From sequence record PZ452579.1: 64,000 nt of DNA; one strand, given 5' to 3'. Below, one piece after another: positions 39,801 through 48,088 of the stretch (positions are counted from its first letter, which is position 1; each line of letters opens with the position of its first letter). The notes under the pieces were generated by a model that did not search any database, was not told the origin of the DNA, and saw only the letters and a program-made list of their open reading frames with translations. Made by a program: the position numbers and the translations under genes. The DNA comes from a phage.

Positions 39801-40639
39801 CTGCTGATAATAAAGTATCATTTAATATTAATGGAACACTTTATTCAACAGGCATTGTTTCTACAAATGGATTAAATGTTACAGGTGTTTCTACCTTTAC
39901 CGGGCCTATTAGTGCTACAGGCGAAATTGTTTCTAGTTCTCCTATTGCATTCAGAGCTATTAACGGTAACTATGGTGTTATGCTTTATAACGCTGGTAAC
40001 AGTTCTTATATTGCATTAACTAACTCAGGTGACCAGACCGGGACGTTTAATAACTTACGCCCGATCACGATTAACAACGCCACAGGCTTAGTTCGTCTTG
40101 ACAATGGTGTTCAAATCACAAGTGGTGCAACAATAACTACCGGTGGGTTAACTGTAAATAACAGAATTATTTCTAACGGCGTTAAAACTGCCACTGTTTA
40201 TACCGATAAACCAACAGCTTCTACTGTAGGTTTTTGGTCTATTGACATTAACGATTCTGCTGTATATAGCCAATTCCCTGGATACTGGACGCGTGATAAC
40301 AAAGGTAACCGTGACCAAGAAATTAAATATCCTGGTACTTTGACTCAATTCGGCAATAGCTTAGATTCGCTTTATCAGGATTGGATTTGTTATCCTACAG
40401 GTGCAAATGGTGGTAGCATTCGATATACTCGTACCTGGCAGAAAAATAAAGATGCTTGGACTTCATTTGCAATGGTATTTGATAGTGGCAACCCACCTTC
40501 ACCTAGCGATGTCGGTGCTATCCCATCTGATAATGCTGTTATTGGAAACCTTACTATTCGAGACTTCTTACAATTAGGAAATGTGAGAATTGTTCCAGAC
40601 CCGGTTAACAAAACAGTTAAATTTATATGGGTTGAATAA
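36806..40639 (+). CDS. 34: Long tail fiber proximal subunit gp34
   Basis: 1277 aa (T4 1289 aa); internal phage fibre repeats; synteny 34-35-36-37. Confidence 0.93.
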   Translation: MVDIKRKFRAEDGLDAGGDKIVNVALADRTVGTDGVNVDFLVQENTVQNYDETRAYTKDFIVLYDNRFYQALSDIPAPAGPFSLAKWKATRTDAEWITVQGGDFQLSVGNSIAVDTSAGTDINFTLPQNPLDGDTVILSDIGGRVGYVKVQITAAAQSIVNFRGQQVRSVLMTHPKSKMVFIFSNRLWQMYVSDYERNAVTVTPATPYQAQPNDFIIRRFTSAAPINITLPRNANNGDIINLVDLDKLNPLYHTIVKTYDDTTSIREAGVHVAEGRNTAEAFFVYDSANSLWRVWEGDQKSRLRIVRNDTDLRPNEEVLVFGTNNDTISTVNLTLPTDILSGDTVKISLNYMRKGQTVKIKAAEGDTIASSISLLQFPKRSEYPPDAQWVSVSELEFNGDTSYVPVLELAYIEDYSSETKYWVVQQNTVTVERVDASSNNTRARLGVIALASQAQANVDLENAPGKELAITPETLANRTATETRRGIARIATTAQVNQNTDFAFQDDLIISPKKLNERTATETRRGVAEVATQAETNAGTDDTTIITPKKLDARQGSEVLSGIVKYTSTTGTTAATIRGNAGTNVYNKAVDNLTISPKALDQYKATPTQQGAVILAIESEVIAGESQAGWANAVVTPETLHKKTSTDGRIGLIEIATQAETNTGTDYTRAVTPKTLNDRKATEGLSGIAEIATQVEFDTGTDDTRISSPLKIKTHFDSSGRTSVNSDSGLIEEGTLWNHYTLDISKANETQRGTLRVATQAESNAGTLDDVLITPKKLLGTKSTETSEGVIKVATQAETVTGTSANTAVSPKNLKWIVQSEPSWTATTAIRGFVKTSSGSITFVGDDTQGNTQDLNLYEKNSYAISPYELNRVLANYLPLKAKAADSNLLDGLDSLQFIRRDIDQTVNGSLSLTKQTNLSAPLVSTSTASFGSEASVTRRLTLNDSSGSEIVFTKGTQSLSNKENFVVRAWGNSATDGDRDTVFEAGDETGYHFYSQRAADNKVSFNINGTLYSTGIVSTNGLNVTGVSTFTGPISATGEIVSSSPIAFRAINGNYGVMLYNAGNSSYIALTNSGDQTGTFNNLRPITINNATGLVRLDNGVQITSGATITTGGLTVNNRIISNGVKTATVYTDKPTASTVGFWSIDINDSAVYSQFPGYWTRDNKGNRDQEIKYPGTLTQFGNSLDSLYQDWICYPTGANGGSIRYTRTWQKNKDAWTSFAMVFDSGNPPSPSDVGAIPSDNAVIGNLTIRDFLQLGNVRIVPDPVNKTVKFIWVE
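38236..39250 (+). repeat. Tandem phage tail-fibre peptide repeats within gene 34
   Basis: Recurring ~35-aa units of type ATETRRG(I/V)A.(I/V)ATQAE.N.GTDDT..ITPKKL. Confidence 0.7.
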
Positions 40640-40647
40640 GAGGTTAT

Positions 40648-41772
40648 ATGGAAAAATTTATGGCAAGGTTTGGACAGGGATACGTCCAAACGCCGTTTTT
40701 ATCGGAAAGCAATTCAGTTAGATTTAAGCTAAGTATAGCGGGTTCATGCCCGCTTTCAACAACTAATCCGTATATTTTGTTCCAAAACGAGCCTTTAGGG
40801 TTGCAGTCTTTTGGTATTGGACTAAATGTTAGGGTAATAAATCCGGAAAATGGAACTATAGTTGATAGTAAATTATACAATTTTGCGCCTACAAATAATG
40901 CAACTTCAGCTGCATTTATTTCGTTTGTTAATACATACGCAGATAATTTCATTTTCGCATTTATTTCTAATAACAAATTTAATTTGCCGCCAGAAATAAT
41001 TGAATGGTTTAAAGCTGCTGGGAGTTCAGTTATACCGTCAATTGAAGTTGCTAGTCTTGTTGATATTTCATATTCAGCGTTTTATGTTTCAGGTAAAAAT
41101 ACTATTGCATTAGAACACATAAAATACAGTAATAAGAAAACAATTTCTGATTACGCAACTCCATTAGATATTGTATATGACTCTATTGCTGATATAGGTG
41201 CTACCGGCTATCCTAGACGTACATATGAAGCTCTAGAAACGTTTTTATCTCCTGTTGGAGGAACTAACAATGAAATAAAAAGGATGCCTACATCATCCCT
41301 TGTTACTCCTATCGCAAACTATGGATTAAAACCTACAGATTTTCTTTATTTGAAATTTCAATTAATGGCTGATGAAGAATTATTAGAGGAAGGAACCACA
41401 AGACTTTCAATTCGTTTCTTTAAGACTCCATCTAGCTCTCCTATATCATCTAAAGATATAAACTTTGATGGAACTGCCGGGGAGTGGAAGTTATATGAAG
41501 AATACGTTGAAATACCAGCTGAAGCTGATGGCTTTACAGTATATTGTTACCGTACGGCCTCAGTCGGTCAAGGTGGACTAAGAAATGTTATTTTCACTGA
41601 AGTATCATGTAACGGAAGTATAGCAAAACCCGCCGAGTTTGGTATAAACGGTATTCGTGTTAATTACATTGATGAATCATTAACCGGTAATGATATAATG
41701 GACTTGCCTACTCAGTTATCTAACGACACAGGTAAGGTATTTGGGCAGGAATTTAAAGAGTACACAGAATAA
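40648..41772 (+). CDS. 35: Long tail fiber hinge protein gp35
   Basis: 374 aa (T4 372 aa); synteny. Confidence 0.88.
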   Translation: MEKFMARFGQGYVQTPFLSESNSVRFKLSIAGSCPLSTTNPYILFQNEPLGLQSFGIGLNVRVINPENGTIVDSKLYNFAPTNNATSAAFISFVNTYADNFIFAFISNNKFNLPPEIIEWFKAAGSSVIPSIEVASLVDISYSAFYVSGKNTIALEHIKYSNKKTISDYATPLDIVYDSIADIGATGYPRRTYEALETFLSPVGGTNNEIKRMPTSSLVTPIANYGLKPTDFLYLKFQLMADEELLEEGTTRLSIRFFKTPSSSPISSKDINFDGTAGEWKLYEEYVEIPAEADGFTVYCYRTASVGQGGLRNVIFTEVSCNGSIAKPAEFGINGIRVNYIDESLTGNDIMDLPTQLSNDTGKVFGQEFKEYTE

Positions 41773-41773
41773 A

Positions 41774-41793
41774 GGAGACTTCGGTCTCCTTTT
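41774..41793 (+). terminator. UUCG-tetraloop hairpin terminator after gene 35 (plus strand)
   Basis: ggagac ttcg gtctcc followed by tttt. Confidence 0.65.
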
Positions 41794-41797
41794 CGCG

Positions 41798-41805
41798 TAT
41801 AAATA
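41798..41805 (+). promoter_or_regulatory. T4 late promoter for genes 36-37-38
   Basis: TATAAATA 26 nt upstream of gene 36 ATG. Confidence 0.6.
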
Positions 41806-41831
41806 CTTTAATATTAATAAGGAGACACGAA

Positions 41832-42488
41832 ATGGCCGATTTAAAAGCCGGAAGTACAGTTGGTGGTTCCGTCATATGGCATCAAGGCAATTTTCCTTTA
41901 ATGCCAGCTGGCGATGACATCCTATATAAAACATTTAAATTATATACCGAATATAACAAGCCAAAAGCGGCTGATAACGATTTCGTATCTAAAGCAAATG
42001 GTGGGACATATCTCAAAAAGGTAATCTTTAACGAAGGTGTTGCAGTCAAAACAGCAGATGACCAAACGAATGGTATTTTTTCTGGTGGTGGTGACGCCGC
42101 GACATTCGACCAAACAAACATGGATATTGTTTCGTGGTATGGTATTGGGTTTAAATCATCTCAAGGTACAGGTGAAAGAACTGTTGTAATTGATACTCGC
42201 ACCGGTAATATAAGTTCTAAAGGCATTATTGAAGCATCTCAATTCAGAGCCACAACGTTAGCACCTTTAAATAATTACGACCTTACTCGCAAAGATTATG
42301 TTGATAGTCAAATAAATACAGTTAATGCTAATGCAAACAGTCGTGTACTCCGTTCAGGAGATACGATGACCGGCGCGCTAACCGCCCCAAACTTTTTCTC
42401 ACAGAATCCTGCATCTCAACCCTCGCATGTTCCACGATTTGACCAAATTGTTATTAAGGATTCTGTTCAAGATTTCGGCTATTATTAA
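41832..42488 (+). CDS. 36: Long tail fiber distal connector gp36
   Basis: 218 aa (T4 221 aa); synteny. Confidence 0.88.
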   Translation: MADLKAGSTVGGSVIWHQGNFPLMPAGDDILYKTFKLYTEYNKPKAADNDFVSKANGGTYLKKVIFNEGVAVKTADDQTNGIFSGGGDAATFDQTNMDIVSWYGIGFKSSQGTGERTVVIDTRTGNISSKGIIEASQFRATTLAPLNNYDLTRKDYVDSQINTVNANANSRVLRSGDTMTGALTAPNFFSQNPASQPSHVPRFDQIVIKDSVQDFGYY

Positions 42489-42496
42489 GAGGACTT

Positions 42497-45400
42497 ATGG
42501 CTACTTTAAAACAAATACAATTTAAAAGAAGCAAAACTGCAGGAGCACGTCCTGCCGCTTCAGTATTAGCCGAAGGTGAATTGGCTATAAACTTAAAAGA
42601 CCGTGTACTTTTTACTAAAGATGACCAAGGAAATATTATTGATCTGGGTTTTGCTAAAGGCGGTAGTATTGACGGGAATGTTATTCATACAGGCAATTAT
42701 AACCAAACTGGCGATTATACTTTAAATGGCGTCTTCACCCAGACTGGTAATTTTAATTTAACTGGTATTGCTCGAGTAACTCGCGATATTATTGCCGCTG
42801 GGCAGATTATGACTGAAGGCGGAGAACTTATTACAAAAAGTTCAGGTACAGCACATGTTCGTTTTCATGATTCGGCTGATCGTGAACGTGGCATTATTTA
42901 TGCACCGGCTAATGATGGATTAACTACGCAAGTAGTTAATATCCGCGTTAAAGACTACGCCGCTGGTGATGAAAGCACCTATGCATTTTCGGGCAGTGGA
43001 CTATTTACTTCACCTGAAGTGTCAGCATGGAAATCTATGTCAACTCCTCAGATTTTGACAAATAGAGTTATTACTAATAATAAATCTACGAGCGATTATG
43101 ACATTTATTCTATGGCAGACAACGTTCCATTGTCTGAAAGCACTACTGCTATTAATCATCTCCGTGTTATGCGCAATGCTGTAGGCGCTGGTGTATTCCA
43201 TGAAGTTAAAGATAATGATGGAATAACTTGGTATACTGGAGATGGCTTAGACACTTATCTTTGGTCGTTTACCTGGTCCGGTGGATTGAAAGCAGGCCAT
43301 TCTATTTCTGTTGGTACTCCTGGTGGCAATAAAGGATACTCTGAATTAGGGACTGCTTCAATTTCTCTTGGCGATAATGATACCGGGCTAAAATGGCATC
43401 AGGATGGATATTATTTCAGCGTCAATAATGGAACGAAAACATTTTTATTTAGTCCCAACGAAACAACTAGCCTAAGAAAATTTGTAGCTGGATATTCTAC
43501 TACCGGAACCGATTTAACTACTCCTCCAACTGAAAACTATGCTTTGGCCACTGTTGTTACTTACCATGATAATAACGCGTTTGGAGACGGTCAGACTCTT
43601 TTAGGATATTATCAAGGCGGTAACTATCATCATTATTTTCGCGGTAAGGGTACTACAAACATTAATACTCACGGCGGTTTGTTAGTTACTCCAGGTAATA
43701 TTGATGTTATTGGCGGTTCTGTTAATATCGATGGTAGAAATAATGCTTCTACACTGATGTTTAGAGGTAACACAACTGGTAGTAGTTCAGTTGATAATAT
43801 GACAATTTCTGTGTGGGGTAATACGTTTACTAATCCTAGTGTAGGTGATCGTAAAAACGTCATGGAAATTTCTGATGCAACTGGTTGGATGAGCTATATT
43901 CAAAGACTTACAACAGGTGAAGTAGAAATGAACGTTAACGGTTCATTTGAATCATCTGGTGTTACTGCTGGAAATAGAGGAGTTCACACAACAGGTGAAA
44001 TTTCATCTGGAGCAGTGAATGCGCTTCGCATTTGGAATGCAGATTATGGAGCTATTTTTAGACGTTCAGAAGGAAGTCTTCATATTATTCCAACTGCTTA
44101 TGGTGAAGGCAAAAATGGTGATATCGGTCCACTTCGCCCGTTTAGTATGGCTTTAGATACCGGTAAAGTTACTATTCCAGATTTACAATCAAGTTACAAT
44201 ACGTTCGCTGCGAACGGCTATATTAAATTTGTTGGTCATGGAGCGGGTGCCGGCGGTTATGACATTCAATATGCTCAAGCGGCTCCTATTTTCCAGGAAA
44301 TTGATGACGATGCTGTAAGCAAATATTATCCGATTGTTAAGCAGAAGTTTTTAAACGGTAAAGCAGTTTGGTCTTTAGGTACTGAAATTAATTCGGGTAC
44401 ATTCGTTATTCATCATCTGAAAGAAGATGGTTCACAAGGACATACATCTCGTTTTAATCAAGACGGTACAGTTAATTTCCCTGATAATGTTCAGGTTGGT
44501 GGTGGTGAAGCTACTATTGCTCGCAACGGTAATATTTTCTCTGATATTTGGAAAACGTTTACTTCTGCAGGTGATGTAACTAATACCCATGACGCTATTG
44601 CTACTCGTGTTGCCAAAGAAGGTGATACGATGACCGGGCGCTTAACTCTTAATGCAAACTCGGATGCTATTGTTATTAACAGTGCTGCAACCGAATCTGG
44701 TTATGTGAAAGGACAAAAAGCAGGCGTTGATAACTGGTATGTAGGTAATGGTGGGGCTGATAATGCTATATCGTTTTATAGTTTCCGAACTAATTCAGGC
44801 ATATATGTTAATAATGGCGGTGATATTGCTTTAAACCCGGAAGGGTCTGCTACTTTTAATTTTAATAGGGATCGAATTTATATAAATGGGTCAGTCTGGA
44901 CCGCACACCAGGCTGGCGATTGGGGAAATCAATGGCGCCAGGAAGCTCCTGTATTTGTGGATTTTGGTAATGTCGGTAATGATAGTTATTATCCTATTAT
45001 TAAAGGAAAATCTGGTATTACTAATGAAGGTTATATATCTGGTGTAGATTTTGGTATGCGCCGTATCACTAATACATGGGCACAAGGTATTATTCGTGTA
45101 GGCAACCAGGAAGGCGATTCTGACCCACAAGCGATCTATGAATTCCACCACAATGGAGTTATGTATGTTCCTAACATGGTTAAAACCGGAGCAAGATTAT
45201 CGGCTGGCGGTGGTGACCCGGTGTGGACTGGACCATGTCTTGTTATTGGTGATAATGATACCGGATTAGTTCATGGTGGTGATGGGCGAATTAACATGGT
45301 TGCAAATGGAGTGCATATTGCTTCGTGGTCTTCATCTTATCATTCTCATCCTGGCCTTTGGGATTCAAACGGTGCTTTGTGGACAGAAGTTGGCAAAGCA

Positions 45401-45808
45401 GTTATTTCTCATGGTCATTTAGTTCAGGCGAATGACAACTATTCAACATATGTCCGCGATGTTTATGTCCGCTCTGATATTCGTGTTAAAAAGAACCTCG
45501 TTAAATTTGAAAATGCTTCTGAGAAGCTTTCTAAAATTAACGGTTACACTTATATACAGAAGCGAGGCCTAGATGAAGAAGGTAATCAGAAATGGGAACC
45601 AAACGCTGGGTTAATTGCTCAAGAAGTTCAAGCTATTTTACCTGAATTAGTTGAAGGTGATCAGGATGGTGAAGCTTTACTTCGTTTGAACTATAACGGT
45701 GTAATTGGTTTAAATACAGCTGCAATCAATGAGCATACTGCAGAAATTGCAGAACTTAAGTCAGAGATTGAAGAGCTTAAAAAATTAGTTAAATCATTGT
45801 TAAAATAA
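42497..45808 (+). CDS. 37: Long tail fiber distal subunit gp37 with C-terminal intramolecular chaperone domain
   Basis: 1103 aa; C-terminal ~110 aa carry an S|DxRxK autoproteolysis motif ([10 protein letters not shown]) and coiled-coil tail, as in T2-type gp37. Confidence 0.9.
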
Positions 45809-45813
45809 TAAGA

Positions 45814-45827
45814 GGGGCTTCGGCCCC
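45814..45827 (+). other. Intercistronic GGGGC-UUCG-GCCCC hairpin between genes 37 and 38
   Basis: ggggcttcggcccc directly before the GGAGG RBS of gene 38. Confidence 0.55.
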
Positions 45828-45839
45828 TTGGAGGTTTAT

Positions 45840-46613
45840 ATGGCAGTTGAAGGACCGTGGGTAGGATGGTCTGCAAGGGTACAGACTGGAGATCCTTGGA
45901 TGGGTGGTGCCGCACAGAGATTGAGAATGGGAATTCCGTTTTGGATGAGTAATATGATAGGTCGATCTGTTGAAGTAATTCACACACTTGGAGCAGACCA
46001 TAACTTCAATGGTCAATGGTTCCGAGATAGATGTTTTGAGGCAGGTAGTGCACCTATAGTGTTTAATATCACTGGAAATTTAGTATCATATAGTAAAGAT
46101 GTTCCATTATTCTTTATGTATGGCGATACACCAAATGAATATGTTACTTTGAATATTCACGGTGGAGTTCATATGTGGGGACGAGGTGGTAACGGTACTG
46201 TAAACGGAAACCCAGGCACAAATGGCGGCGATGTAATCCAAAATGATATCGGCGGAAGACTTCGTATTTGGAACTATGGCGTTATTGCATCAGGCGGCGG
46301 CGGTGGTGGTGCAATGTCGTTACAGAATAGCTGGGCGCCAAATGCTACAGCAGGTGGCGGTGGTGGTAGACCATTTGGCCTCGGCGGAGGCGGCGTTAAT
46401 TGGCCGGGTGGTAATGCTAGTTATGACGCCCCGGGCGGTGCCGGTTACACTTCCCAATTCGGCGGAGGCAATGGCGGTGATGCTGGAGGTCGTGGCGGAG
46501 ACGGATGGGGTAATCACTTATCTAGATCTGGCGGTGGTGCTCCTGGCAGAGCAGTATTCGGAAGTTCACCGTCATGGGGTGCTACAGGCACAATCTACGG
46601 CTCCTGGATTTAA
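45840..46613 (+). CDS. 38: gp38 receptor-recognizing adhesin (T2/T6 type) with glycine-rich motifs
   Basis: 257 aa from ATG at 45840 (GGAGG RBS); conserved N-terminus ([35 protein letters not shown]) and poly-Gly islands separating variable segments. Confidence 0.9.
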
Positions 46614-46631
46614 ACGATAATACCTCTCAAT

Positions 46632-46639
46632 TATAAATA
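46632..46639 (+). promoter_or_regulatory. T4 late promoter for holin gene t
   Basis: TATAAATA 8 nt upstream of the t RBS. Confidence 0.6.
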
Positions 46640-46646
46640 TTGATAA

Positions 46647-47318
46647 ATGGGAGGTAATATGGCAGCACCAAAAGTATCATTTTCGCCTAGTGATATTTTA
46701 TTTGGGTTGCTAGACCGCATTTTCAAAGATAACGCCTCTGGAAATATTCTTATTTCAAGAGTTGCTGTTGTAGTTCTTTTGTTCCTAATGGCACTAATAT
46801 GGTACAAAGGGAATATTTTTATGGATTATTACGTGAGGTCGAAATATGATACTTACACAGAAGTAATTCAAAAAGAAAGAAATACACGATTTGAATCTGC
46901 GGCTTTAGAACAACTACAAATAGTCCACGTCACATCAAGGGCGGATTTTAGTTCGGTGTATTCTTTCAGACCTAAAAATCTAAATTATTTCGTCGACCTT
47001 ATTGCGTATGAAGGTAAGTTACCTAGCACAGTAACTGAAAAATCTATGGGAGGATTTCCTGTTGATAAAACGACAGCAGAATATTCGGTCCATTTAAGTG
47101 GACTTCACTTTACTTCTAAAACAGATTTTGCTTTCTTACCTACCAAATCAAAAACTCCGGAACTGGCGTATATGTATAGTTGTCCTTACTTCAATTTGGA
47201 TAACATATATGCGGGAACTGTTTCTATGTATTGGTATAAGGGGTCGGATGTGTTAAATGAAGAACGCTTGGCTGCAATATGCAACCAAGCAGCAAGGATA
47301 TTAGGGCGGGCTAAATAA
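46647..47318 (+). CDS. t: Holin T
   Basis: 223 aa; strong identity to T4 holin (MAAPKVSFSPSDILFG..., single N-terminal TM, C-terminal ARILGRAK). Confidence 0.95.
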   Translation: MGGNMAAPKVSFSPSDILFGLLDRIFKDNASGNILISRVAVVVLLFLMALIWYKGNIFMDYYVRSKYDTYTEVIQKERNTRFESAALEQLQIVHVTSRADFSSVYSFRPKNLNYFVDLIAYEGKLPSTVTEKSMGGFPVDKTTAEYSVHLSGLHFTSKTDFAFLPTKSKTPELAYMYSCPYFNLDNIYAGTVSMYWYKGSDVLNEERLAAICNQAARILGRAK

Positions 47319-47591
47319 TTAGTTGTTAGAATACATCGTCAAATGGCGATAAATATTTTCAAAACCTTCATTGAATTCACTAATCAGTGTTTTCTTTTCT
47401 TCGGCAGTTAAATTTGTAATTAGTTTTCTGAACGAATTCTGATTTAGCTGCCGACCATCTTTTTTAATTCCAATCTCATTCAAGAATCCGATGAAATTTG
47501 CTCGGTCTTCAACAATATCTTCCCTCGAGAATTTAATCAAAATAGAAGCAACCGTAATAATTTCACGTACAATTTCAATATCTTTATTCAT
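47319..47591 (-). CDS. asiA: AsiA anti-sigma70 factor
   Basis: 90 aa; near-identical to T4 AsiA (MNKDIEIVREIITVASILIKFSREDIVE...). Confidence 0.95.
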   Translation of the reverse strand: MNKDIEIVREIITVASILIKFSREDIVEDRANFIGFLNEIGIKKDGRQLNQNSFRKLITNLTAEEKKTLISEFNEGFENIYRHLTMYSNN

Positions 47592-47625
47592 AACGTTTTA
47601 TTCATTCCATTTGGTTGATATGAGT

Positions 47626-47655
47626 ATAGTACCATTATCAGTGTTGATTGTAAAC
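47626..47655 (-). promoter_or_regulatory. T4-type early promoter (minus) for asiA
   Basis: + strand atagta - 17 nt - tgtaaac. Confidence 0.55.
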
Positions 47656-47799
47656 AGCTTTTTCTACACTTTTAACGTAATCAGTGTAGTCTTCCTGTTC
47701 ATACGAGTGTAAGGCCAAGAATGTGGCTAATAGTTCATTATAGACTAAAGCCTCACGCTCACGTTCTGCCTCTACTACGTTCTGAAGATTATGGCTCAT
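47638..47799 (-). CDS. Hypothetical small protein (asiA.1 position)
   Basis: 53 aa from internal Met to avoid a 53-nt overlap with arn; low support. Confidence 0.4.
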   Translation of the reverse strand: MSHNLQNVVEAEREREALVYNELLATFLALHSYEQEDYTDYVKSVEKAVYNQH

Positions 47800-47800
47800 A

Positions 47801-48088
47801 TCATTCCTTATAACTATCAATGTAGTCCTGTATGTCAAAGAATGACATTTCATATTCTAGGGCGTTAAGAGCCCGTTCTTCAGTATAGTCAGAACCAAAG
47901 ACGATAGTGATTTCACCAGGCTTCATGTGATTGAAATCAACACTAAAAGGAATACGAGAACATACTTCGTCTGCCATATCTACGATAACACTACGACACA
48001 CTTCTCGGTTAACCTGATAAAGCTCTGCAAGTTCTTCGCAACGAATAACAAGTTCAGTGGCAGGATTTTCTTTTATTTTAGTAAGCAT
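47801..48088 (-). CDS. arn: Probable Arn (anti-restriction nuclease) by synteny
   Basis: 95-aa acidic protein immediately upstream of asiA as in T4. Confidence 0.6.
   Translation of the reverse strand: MLTKIKENPATELVIRCEELAELYQVNREVCRSVIVDMADEVCSRIPFSVDFNHMKPGEITIVFGSDYTEERALNALEYEMSFFDIQDYIDSYKE

Follow-up and report, generated by a model that had tools for sequence, protein, structure and literature searches.

The region from 45476 to 46613 of the window (the whole stretch of 64,000 nucleotides of phage DNA that was analyzed, sequence record PZ452579.1) encodes, with a probability of about 0.92, the distal tip of a T2/S16-type long tail fiber in its RB69 allele. The window shares 97% nucleotide identity with phage RB69 over 25 kb and comes from an RB69-like Mosigvirus, in which the tail fiber genes are arranged in the order g35-g36-g37-g38-t, as in RB69. 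The original prediction had proposed a T2-type adhesin module, in which a self-cleaving chaperone tail on gp37 is followed by a gp38 with glycine islands. This was borne out by Pfam, PHROG and PDB matches and by the RB69 gene order, and all of the sequence features described were found where they had been placed. The comparisons were based on solved structures and 840 phage records. The reading is directly supported by the gene structure, by family membership, by the conservation of catalytic and docking residues and by the near-identity of the specificity domain to those of OmpF-dependent phages. The module is an already known and well-characterized kind of receptor-binding tip. Its biology is not new: crystal structures have been solved for the family (S16, PP01), its genetics goes back decades (T2, Ox2, T6), and its receptors have recently been mapped on a large scale.

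Table 1. Positions of the features of the gp37-gp38 fiber tip in the window, with the basis of each assignment.
Feature	Coordinates	Strand	Basis
g37 (1103 aa)	42497..45808	+	ORF; 3312 nt, length as in RB69
Predicted mature distal long-tail-fiber subunit, aa 1-992	42497..45472	+	ORF; Pfam Gp34_trimer and gp37_trimer matches
Ac3-like recombinant patch in gp37 tip, about aa 818-985	44950..45450	+	Best megablast match phage Ac3, 96.4%
Intramolecular chaperone (IMC) domain of gp37, aa 993-1103 (111 aa), predicted release after trimerization	45473..45805	+	Pfam PF13884; 6F45_A; profile matches; PHROG long-tail-fiber families
Ser993 codon, predicted catalytic nucleophile; predicted scissile bond R992/S993 just upstream	45473..45475	+	First Pfam position; invariant in 23 T2-type tails
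Lys998 codon, predicted general base of Ser-Lys dyad (Ser+5)	45488..45490	+	Invariant K in 23 homologues
C-terminal heptad helix, aa 1077-1103, predicted trimeric coiled coil of IMC	45725..45805	+	Four heptads; a = I,I,I,V, d = H,L,L,L
g37 double stop TAATAA	45806..45811	+	Sequence
Intergenic GC hairpin GAGGGGC-UUCG-GCCCCUU, between g37 stop and g38 Shine-Dalgarno	45812..45829	+	-13 kcal/mol
Shine-Dalgarno GGAGG of g38	45830..45834	+	5 nt before ATG; kept in relatives
g38, T2/S16-type tail-fiber tip adhesin, 257 aa + stop (774 nt)	45840..46613	+	Pfam, PHROG, PDB
N-terminal attachment domain, aa 1-40, RB69/S16 subtype, with Trp7, Trp20, Trp35	45840..45959	+	Pfam Gp38_N
Linker and first beta-helix part, aa 41-114	45960..46181	+	92.6% identical to PP01 RBD crystal construct
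Specificity region, aa 115-240, glycine-rich motifs alternating with hypervariable loops (predicted polyglycine-II sandwich)	46182..46559	+	S16 and PP01 alignment
Loop A, aa 120-125, TVNGNP	46197..46214	+	Mapped from PP01 loop A (W119-I124)
Met159 codon, private V159M between first poly-Gly helix and loop B	46314..46316	+	Alignment of relatives
Loop B, aa 161-170, [10 protein letters not shown]	46320..46349	+	Mapped from PP01 loop B; identical in RB69, Bas47, fPS-90
Loop C, aa 184-188, GGVNW	46389..46403	+	Mapped from PP01 loop C
Loop D, aa 203-207, YTSQF, including Gln206 (CAA, 46455-46457)	46446..46460	+	Mapped from PP01 loop D
Loop E, aa 221-229, DGWGNHLSR	46500..46526	+	Mapped from PP01 loop E
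Conserved C-terminal segment, aa 241-257, back to beta-helix	46560..46610	+	Motif [22 protein letters not shown], all relatives

The C-terminus of gp37 was assigned to the S74 family of intramolecular chaperones. Pfam Peptidase_S74 (PF13884) matched residues 993-1052 with an E value of 7.2e-13 (49.1 bits, cutoff 22) over profile positions 1-57 of 58, and the match begins exactly at Ser993. Residues 990-999 of gp37 ([10 protein letters not shown]) hold the motif S-D-x-R-x-K. The codon of Asp994 lies at 45476, the start of the region originally described, and 110 residues follow Ser993 up to the double stop. Serine, aspartate, arginine and lysine of the motif are invariant in 23 of 23 T2-type gp37 tails, including those of T2, T6 and S16, and Ser993 and Lys998 correspond to S911/K916 of endoNF, S587/K592 of MyRF and S1264/K1269 of T5 pb1. 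Homology links the gp37 tip to S16 gp37 of PDB entry 6F45 (chain 6F45_A; E 6e-44 for the C-terminus), and the S74 domain occupies the extreme C-terminus, after residues homologous to the beta-helix of that chain. The S74 chaperones of endosialidase K1F (endoNF), T5 pb1, the GA-1/phi29 appendages and MyRF share with the window gp37 a Ser-Lys dyad with the lysine at Ser+5, a location where a trimeric beta-helix ends and, as predicted for gp37, a triple coiled coil at the terminus, but they are distant in sequence: a profile of seven tails matched MyRF ICA 7dc3 (4e-10), the tail fiber 8jov (2e-7) and the GA-1 IMC 3gud (3e-3). In T5 and endoNF it is the receptor-binding or enzymatic end that cleavage bares, whereas in the window gp37 the bared end would be the place where a second protein docks. 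NCBIfam gave no family match for gp37 or gp38.

The position of the predicted cleavage follows from homologues. T5 pb1 is cleaved at T1263/S1264 (PMC4690869), MyRF at P586/S587, as mapped by mass spectrometry (PMC8326128), and S16 within DLNVS^SDRRIKK (PMC7917993). Since these cuts all lie N-terminal of the catalytic serine, the predicted scissile bond of the window protein is R992/S993 and not the bond between serine and aspartate, and the released tail would comprise 111 aa encoded from 45473. The cleavage motif named in the original prediction is thus present, but the bar marking the cut had probably been placed one residue too far downstream. For T2 and T6, Trojet 2011, citing Drexler 1986, describes gp37 cleavage followed by capping with gp38. 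In T2, the namesake of the module (Drexler et al. 1986, Riede et al. 1985), it is at the C-terminus that gp37 is proteolytically processed. T2 gp37 carries a SDIRLK motif and an IMC as in the window, although the T2 IMC comprises 99 aa.

The tail of about 110 aa had also been taken for a coiled coil over its whole length. This does not hold, as only the last ~27 aa give clean coiled-coil heptads. A 21-nt period in the DNA, detected by TRF at 45741-45780, matches these heptads, and T5 pb1 and MyRF also carry a terminal coiled-coil element (PMC4690869; PMC8326128). The AF2 single-sequence model of gp37 residues 963-1103 reached a mean pLDDT of 58, which is too low to assign the IMC fold of tentacle hairpins and a mixed alpha/beta part; only the terminal helix is credible in it, and the heptad helix falls within that model's only helix whose final residues reach pLDDT 80-90. 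From its heptad pattern, the terminal helix is predicted to be capable of forming a triple coiled coil.

Compared to RB69, gp37 differs in 51 of 1103 residues, which are concentrated in aa ~850-981, and the IMC differs in two. In 100-nt bins the Ac3-like patch shows 92-100% identity to phage Ac3 vs 73-88% to RB69, and the remaining g37 is RB69-like. The amino acid differences from RB69 cluster in this patch. RB69 shares with the window the gene order, the lengths of g37 (3312 nt) and g38 (774 nt) and the intergenic hairpin, but lacks the Ac3-like segment. The exact sequences of gp37 and gp38 were both absent from a collection of 15 billion proteins.

The protein encoded by g38 matched Pfam GP38 (PF05268) with an E value of 4.4e-83 (278.9 bits, cutoff 25) at aa 45-257 over the full profile length, and Gp38_N (PF21721) with an E value of 6.5e-20 (71.3 bits, cutoff 25) at aa 1-40. 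It also matched PHROG 2056 (E 1.5e-106) and the solved adhesins of PP01 (9V85, 2e-74) and S16 (6F45_D, 1e-47). With 99.2% amino acid identity it differs from RB69 gp38 in two of 257 residues, namely M159 (V in RB69) and L181 (I in RB69). The holin gene t follows at 46647 (Pfam Phage_holin_T, E 5.6e-89). The homologues from S16, PP01 and T6 are known to mediate adsorption as a gp38 monomer at the fiber tip. The architecture predicted for the window tip is that of S16 gp37(3)-gp38 (PDB 6F45; Dunne et al. 2018), where a trimeric gp37 beta-helix with an autocleaved C-terminal SDxRxK IMC is combined with a gp38 monomer that has three Trp residues in its attachment domain and also contains a beta-helix and a polyglycine-II sandwich. 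The N-terminal subtype (MAV.GPWVG) is also shared, and Trp7, Trp20 and Trp35 align with W7, W20 and W36 of S16, whereas amino acid identity of the attachment domain to the T6/Bas47 subtype is only ~53%. S16 differs by an amino acid identity of ~50% in gp38, by other loops, with loop B 5 residues shorter, by a much shorter gp37 and by Salmonella OmpC as its reported receptor.

The glycine-rich motifs (GRMs) in gp38 are collinear with those of S16, PP01, T2 and T6, and in the alignment variation is confined to five loops. Poly-Gly tracts are located at aa 152-157 (GGGGGG), 172-176 (GGGGG) and 182-185 (GGGG), in addition to twelve shorter GG or GGG runs; glycine accounts for 25% of gp38 as a whole and 36.5% of aa 115-240, vs 12.5% of gp37. 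This confirms the conserved N-terminus and the poly-Gly tracts between variable segments that had been described, and the further reading that these segments set receptor specificity was upheld too. The layout of GRMs and HVSs is the same in T2 gp38, which is 44% identical overall to the window protein and belongs to a phage with FadL and OmpF as receptors. A return to the beta-helix at the C-terminus, as assigned here, has been described for S16 gp38. The AF2 single-sequence model of gp38 had a mean pLDDT of 31, as expected for a polyglycine-II protein; a polyglycine-II sandwich is suggested by 56-93% identity to the crystallized PP01 RBD. Two alternative-frame ORFs at 46243-46620 (+ strand, 125 aa) and 46320-46517 (- strand, 65 aa) were rejected as Ala/Val-rich shadows of g38, by-products of stop-poor GGN-rich DNA.

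The receptor of this gp38 is almost certainly the E. coli porin OmpF, as judged from sequence comparison. Aligning the variable segments with gp38 proteins of known receptor, as had been proposed, gave a clear answer: aa 115-257 are 98.6% identical to Bas47 and fPS-90, and loops A-E are identical in RB69, Bas47 and fPS-90. Among the OmpF-specific alleles of Bas47 (AlbertHofmann), fPS-90/fPS-2, RB51 and FL31 the specificity domain is 98-99% identical to that of the window, and all five loops, where aligned, are identical in Bas47, fPS-90 and FL31. OmpF dependence of Bas47 has been genetically complemented, as has that of fPS-90 and fPS-2, and RB69 and RB51 require OmpF (Trojet 2011). OmpF can be predicted as the primary receptor from sequence alone, since genetically characterized phages carry the same five loops. 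However, RB69 additionally needs FhuA and a full LPS core (Trojet 2011), so that OmpF alone may not describe adsorption. In Bas47 and fPS-90 the specificity domain is fused to a T6-like attachment domain (~53% identity in aa 1-45) and is paired with other gp37 tips and IMC subtypes, which means that the same adhesin head occurs on different fibers.

An otherwise identical module with a receptor other than OmpF, either OmpC as in PP01 or OmpW or another porin by way of V159M, is quite improbable. The closest solved structure by sequence is the PP01 gp38 RBD (PDB 9V85), which has the same order of glycine-rich motifs and comes from an E. coli O157 phage that binds O157 OmpC via loops D and E; yet the 92.6% identity in the beta-helix drops to 56% in aa 115-257, and none of the five loops agrees with its counterpart in the window, where the loops instead equal those of the OmpF-dependent phages. 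A single substitution, Q206L, switched this very allele from OmpF to OmpW in RB51/RB68 (bioRxiv 10.64898/2026.04.02.716166), but Gln206 is kept in the window protein. V159M was found in none of 80 database records, the best of which is 116/117 identical over aa 141-257, and the aligned relatives with the OmpF-type specificity domain have valine at this position, except one locus (L002) with glycine. Nevertheless, the change from valine to methionine is conservative, and residue 159 is located at the base of loop B rather than at its tip. The OmpF dependence of FL31 amounts to only about one log: EOP fell by only one log on the deletion mutants of ompF and tolC, a drop under the threshold of that study. 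Barely credible is a T4-type arrangement, in which gp38 is an assembly chaperone absent from the virion and the C-terminus of gp37 binds the receptor. The RB69 record AY303349 does name the near-identical gene 'distal long tail fiber assembly catalyst', and according to some authors gp38 of the T2 type may also aid gp37 assembly before staying attached. However, a note in the same record describes the unrelated 'gp38' of the T2 subfamily as an adhesin, and RefSeq renames the gene 'tail fiber protein; host specificity'. T4 gp38, a fiber assembly chaperone, shares the name and the position between g37 and t but is an unrelated protein; Pfam searches of the window gp38 (E<=0.01) gave matches to the two adhesin families alone and NCBIfam gave none, with no T4-type gp38/Tfa-like chaperone family among the matches, and the structural matches are the solved adhesins 9V85 and 6F45_D. 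In addition, T4 gp37 bears the adhesin itself in its needle tip and has no S74 tail, whereas the window gp37 ends in a removable S74 chaperone and not in a T4-like needle domain.

It had further been suggested that the GGC/GGT-rich DNA at 46287-46520 is a substrate for slippage or recombination that changes host range. That this tract is slippage-prone or hypermutable and alters host range through expansion or contraction of glycine runs is very improbable. The composition is extreme, with 61% G+C vs 37.8% for the whole window, and a repeat search found direct repeats in it, but these are only short, imperfect GGY repeats of 10-25 nt that are expected from glycine codons. TRF at score 30 detected no tandem array in the Gly-coding DNA, its only hits being the 21-nt heptad period of g37 and a trivial 7-mer. 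The longest run of one perfectly repeated triplet there has three units, owing to the mixing of GGC, GGT and GGA. Among the 60 matches listed with this specificity domain, aa 141-257 span exactly 351 nt in 59, and a change in Gly-tract length was found in none. SQ17 does carry a 6-nt tandem duplication in g38, but the duplicated unit is TCTAGA (SR) in loop E and not in a Gly tract. The poly-Gly runs of T2, T6, S16, PP01 and RB69-type proteins differ by substitutions at their ends, not by indels, and deletion of GRMs in T6 yielded no viable phage (Trojet 2011). The slippage part of the suggestion is therefore unsupported. Recombination is documented as a source of diversity for g38 (Trojet 2011), and the comparison with 13 IMG/VR loci and singly added GenBank records gave mosaic nucleotide identity profiles. 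Mosaicism of the gene was thus found, but the joints that could be located, at codon ~48 and codons ~100-120, lie outside 46287-46520.

For the T2/S16-type tip, homologues point to a sequence of events in which cleavage and its exact bond, a 3:1 stoichiometry, the fold and OmpF binding would be as follows. Synthesized as a precursor of 1103 aa, gp37 would use its final 111 residues as an S74-family intramolecular chaperone, whose C-terminal heptad helix would gather three chains while the remainder of the domain would template the last turns of the trimeric beta-helix. After correct folding of the trimer, the Ser993-Lys998 dyad of each chain would cut R992-S993 and the chaperone would depart, baring the hydrophobic end of the fiber. 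One gp38 would then dock on this end via the three-helix domain at its N-terminus, Trp7, Trp20 and Trp35 serving as prongs. The rest of gp38 would form a beta-helix with a polyglycine-II sandwich, in which the glycine-rich motifs may build up a rigid lattice, and the five intervening segments may act as distal loops that touch the receptor, presumably OmpF for this allele. Diversity at the locus probably arises from swaps of modules, namely the gp37 tip and, in gp38, the attachment domain and the specificity domain, together with point changes in the loops. For annotation, this means that g38 should be named an adhesin here instead of keeping the 'assembly catalyst' label from the old record of RB69, and that the virion product of gp37 should terminate at Arg992. 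For phage engineering, the fiber tip is again seen as three swappable cassettes: one comprises the gp37 tip together with the chaperone, and the other two are the attachment domain and the specificity domain of gp38.

At the junction of the two genes, a TTG at 45828 was rejected as the start of g38, as it lies upstream of the Shine-Dalgarno sequence and all relatives begin at the ATG. The search of Rfam with 45600-46700 (E<=1) gave no match for the intergenic hairpin or its surroundings. As the MAFFT alignment of the intergenic region is not structure-aware, each variant was folded separately instead. A hairpin of 6-8 bp was found at the same place in 10 of 10 distinct intergenic variants, with differing stem sequences; that of RB69 is identical to the hairpin of the window. 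An intrinsic terminator on the plus strand was rejected as its function, because no T-run follows on this strand and a terminator-like score was obtained for the minus strand only. A tentative and rather unlikely proposal combines two ideas: that the hairpin may set the amount of gp38 relative to gp37, with one cap per three chains, and that V159M and the Ac3-like gp37 tip may shift host range. Since Q206L alone re-targets this adhesin allele, such a shift could result from V159M or the Ac3-like tip. The hairpin itself could, for example, act as a boundary for mRNA processing or stability, or it could slow ribosomes that re-initiate at g38.

The original prediction of a T2-type adhesin module, in which a chaperone-tailed gp37 is followed by a glycine-island gp38, is supported by matches to Pfam, PDB and RB69. 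In gp37, Ser993-Asp-Ile-Arg-Val-Lys998 is followed by 105 residues and a TAATAA double stop, and the Pfam Peptidase_S74 match begins exactly at Ser993 (49 bits, cutoff 22). For gp38, the profiles Gp38_N (E 6.5e-20) and GP38 (E 4.4e-83) are both hit along their whole lengths. Because of these three matches and the agreement of the PHROGs with them, the features of the gp37 tail and gp38 are not due to chance. NCBIfam yielded no match for either protein, Rfam none in the region, and single-sequence AlphaFold models of the gp37 tail and gp38 were too poor in quality for use. At every level the module was known before: RB69 has these genes, crystal structures exist for the family, the mechanism of the chaperone is established, and several phages have had the receptor of this allele mapped genetically. 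Neither gp37 nor gp38 occurs in exactly this form in a collection of 15 billion proteins; they differ from known ones solely by an apparently recombinant patch and two substitutions.

Genes around the adhesin locus and receptor loops of gp38 (loops placed by the PP01 loop definitions)
Feature	Position	Strand	Sequence	Remark
gp35 (hinge connector)	40648-41772	+		late gene run
gp36	41832-42488	+		late gene run
gp37, 1103 aa	42497-45808	+		late gene run
gp38, 257 aa	45840-46613	+		late gene run; end is last base of stop codon
holin t	46647-47318	+		late gene run
loop A	gp38 aa 120-125		TVNGNP	PP01 mapping
loop B	gp38 aa 161-170		not shown	PP01 mapping
loop C	gp38 aa 184-188		GGVNW	PP01 mapping
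loop D	gp38 aa 203-207		YTSQF	PP01 mapping
loop E	gp38 aa 221-229		DGWGNHLSR	PP01 mapping

The last 210 residues of gp37, including the part after the motif, match S16 gp37 of the 6F45 tip complex (E 6e-44). Together with the Peptidase_S74 match this bears out the proposed SDxRxK motif and a chaperone tail of the self-cleaving type, the cleavage itself being predicted. Among 23 aligned T2-type gp37 tails from IMG/VR loci, GenBank records (RB69, T2, T6, Bas47, fPS-90, FL31, SQ17, HY01 and KRT47) and the S16 PDB entry, the motif residues S, D, R and K are invariant, while the remaining sequence forms several subtypes. Searching with a profile built from seven tails linked them to the solved ICA domain of MyRF (4e-10), to a further phage tail fibre, 8jov (2e-7), and to the GA-1 chaperone 3gud (3e-3), whose chain starts at the serine. 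Cleavage had been proposed between Ser and Asp. However, T5 pb1 is cut at T1263|S1264, so that the serine departs with the chaperone (PMC4690869), MyRF at P586|S587, as determined by mass spectrometry (PMC8326128), and S16 at DLNVS^SDRRIKK, fPS phages having a proposed R^S site that aligns with it (PMC7917993). As these proteins are cut N-terminal of the catalytic serine, R992|S993 is the predicted scissile bond, which would yield a mature gp37 of aa 1-992 and a freed fragment of 111 aa encoded from nt 45473. For T2 and T6, cleavage of gp37 and subsequent capping by gp38 are established (Trojet 2011, citing Drexler 1986). The suggested coiled coil of ~110 aa shrinks to aa 1077-1103, the only clean heptads (n=4; a = I,I,I,V; d = H,L,L,L), which are visible in the DNA as a 21-nt period and resemble the terminal triple coiled coil, likewise short, of T5 pb1 and MyRF. 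In the IMG/VR copy of vB_EcoM_005 (L003) the g37 frame is broken within the chaperone-coding part (…CAGAAACGCTGGAACTGACG…), separating this domain from the fibre, and the GenBank record carries an extra 'hypothetical protein' at the 3' break; either an error in sequencing or true disruption of the chaperone may account for this.

The conserved N-terminus and the poly-Gly tracts expected of gp38 are all present, with glycine runs of 6 (aa 152-157), 5 (aa 172-176) and 4 (aa 182-185) residues besides twelve shorter ones. Glycine accounts for 36.5% of gp38 aa 115-240, compared to 12.5% of gp37. In the PDB, gp38 has sequence matches to the crystallised PP01 gp38 receptor-binding domain (9V85, E 2e-74) and to S16 gp38 in full length (6F45_D, E 1e-47). 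The S16 structure comprises a three-helix attachment domain carrying three Trp prongs, a beta-helix and a polyglycine-II sandwich, with the connecting hypervariable loops toward the receptor. Trp7, Trp20 and Trp35 align with these prongs, and the glycine-rich motifs are collinear with those of S16, PP01, T2 and T6. Many database records, those of RB69 (AY303349, gene 38) and several other phages among them, call the adhesin 'distal long tail fiber assembly catalyst/chaperone', a role that belongs to T4 gp38, an unrelated protein. The misannotation continues to spread, and the RB69 record's own note concedes the discrepancy.

Comparison of the variable segments with gp38 proteins of known receptor gave a clear answer, the OmpF group. 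PP01, the closest solved structure, binds OmpC but has no loop in common and is only 56% identical over aa 115-257, whereas Bas47 and fPS-90 match this part at 98.6% identity, and loops A-E are identical in RB69, Bas47 and fPS-90. Genetic complementation showed that Bas47 (AlbertHofmann) depends on OmpF (PMC8594841) and that fPS-90 and fPS-2 use Yersinia OmpF (PMC7917993). RB69 and RB51 require OmpF, reportedly along with FhuA and a complete LPS core (PMC3157838). For FL31, plating efficiency fell by only one log on ompF and tolC deletion mutants, below the study threshold (PMC12032242). The specificity part (aa 141-257) is found at 95-99% identity in ~50 database phages among the matches listed, the best of 80 listed records having 116 of 117 identical residues. 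We thus predict OmpF as the receptor, with modest uncertainty since single residues matter and a private V159M occurs. In the same allele Q206L (RB51 vs RB68) is necessary and sufficient for a change from OmpF to OmpW (2026 preprint, bioRxiv 10.64898/2026.04.02.716166); Gln206 is retained here (CAA, 46455-46457). Met159 (46314-46316) lies between the first poly-Gly helix and loop B, a position occupied by Val in every aligned relative with this OmpF-type domain except L002 (Gly). Though conservative, V159M could merit testing, since Q206L alone re-targets the allele.

The residues and domains are seen in the window, and the following steps are inferred from S16, T5, endoNF and MyRF. Through its terminal heptad helix the chaperone domain would put the gp37 chains in register, and it would template the final beta-helix turns. 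Correct trimer geometry would activate Ser993/Lys998, the R992-S993 bonds would be cut, and dissociation of the chaperone would expose a hydrophobic end, at which one gp38 could dock by three Trp-tipped helices. The polyglycine lattice would hold the five loops for reversible engagement of OmpF, with short tail fibres binding the LPS core afterwards.

The glycine-rich DNA had also been proposed as a substrate for recombination or slippage. The locus is visibly mosaic and module exchange is real, but the joints lie outside 46287-46520, where none was found in the sampled relatives. Identity of g38 to Bas47, SQ17 and fPS-90 is ~55% over the first 45 codons and rises to 90-100% at about codon 46 and beyond, with a sharp switch at codons 48-49 (nt ~45984) in SQ17. 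Identity to the PP01-like HY01 is 76-100% up to about codon 100 and ~50% past about codon 120, with the conserved GRGGNG motif in the transition zone. Recombination near conserved motifs (PMC3157838) and an engineered exchange from the hypervariable segment HVS2 onward (bioRxiv 10.64898/2026.04.02.716166) have been reported. In the compared loci each gp38 attachment subtype is paired with the matching gp37 tip and chaperone subtype, a lock-and-key pairing likewise noted by Trojet et al. Nucleotides 44950-45450 of g37 (aa ~818-985), directly upstream of the predicted cleavage site, are 92-100% identical to Tequatrovirus Ac3 vs 73-88% to RB69, and the remainder of g37 and the genome is RB69-like; this stretch looks like a recombinant patch. 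Slippage in the glycine codons is unsupported. Although 46287-46520 has 61% G+C vs 37.8% in the window, it contains no tandem array, and perfect triplet runs reach only 3 units because GGC, GGT and GGA alternate. This specificity domain has exactly the same length in 59 of its 60 listed records, and poly-Gly runs of distant alleles differ by end substitutions without indels. The sole length change, in SQ17 (L020), comes from 6 nt (TCTAGA) duplicated in tandem within loop E, giving HLSRSRSGGG instead of HLSRSGGG (46512-46526). Thus the slippage idea, like the cleavage bond and coiled-coil extent, needs correction.

The surrounding 25 kb are 97.3% identical to Escherichia phage RB69 (Mosigvirus), which has the same gene set and gene lengths. 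The region opens at 45476 with the Asp codon of the SDxRxK-motif region and closes with the g38 stop. The g38 ATG, 5 bases past GGAGG, is used in every relative; an ORF call starting at TTG 45828 is artefactual. Matches to the T4 late-promoter consensus TATAAATA stand just before g36 (41798-41805) and t (46632-46639), and within 40001-48000 none precedes g37 or g38. Therefore g38 would be co-transcribed with g36 and g37, presumably as one late transcription unit. In gp35, aa 58-131 match Pfam ILEI (PF15711, FAM3/interleukin-like EMT inducer; 30.3 bits, cutoff 27), an unexpected family name for a fibre hinge protein. A GC-rich hairpin (GAGGGGC-UUCG-GCCCCUU, 45812-45829, -13 kcal/mol) occupies the stretch from the double stop of g37 to the Shine-Dalgarno sequence of g38; it has no Rfam match and scored as terminator-like solely on the minus strand. 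All 10 distinct intergenic variants (RB69, T2, T6, Bas47 and SQ17 lineages; loci L001-L022) fold into a hairpin of 6-8 bp in this position, and its stem sequence varies, e.g. GGGCC/GGCCC, AGAGGGC/GCCCUCU and GGGGGC/GCCCCC. Thus structure rather than sequence is conserved, and the hairpin may have a role in mRNA stability or processing.
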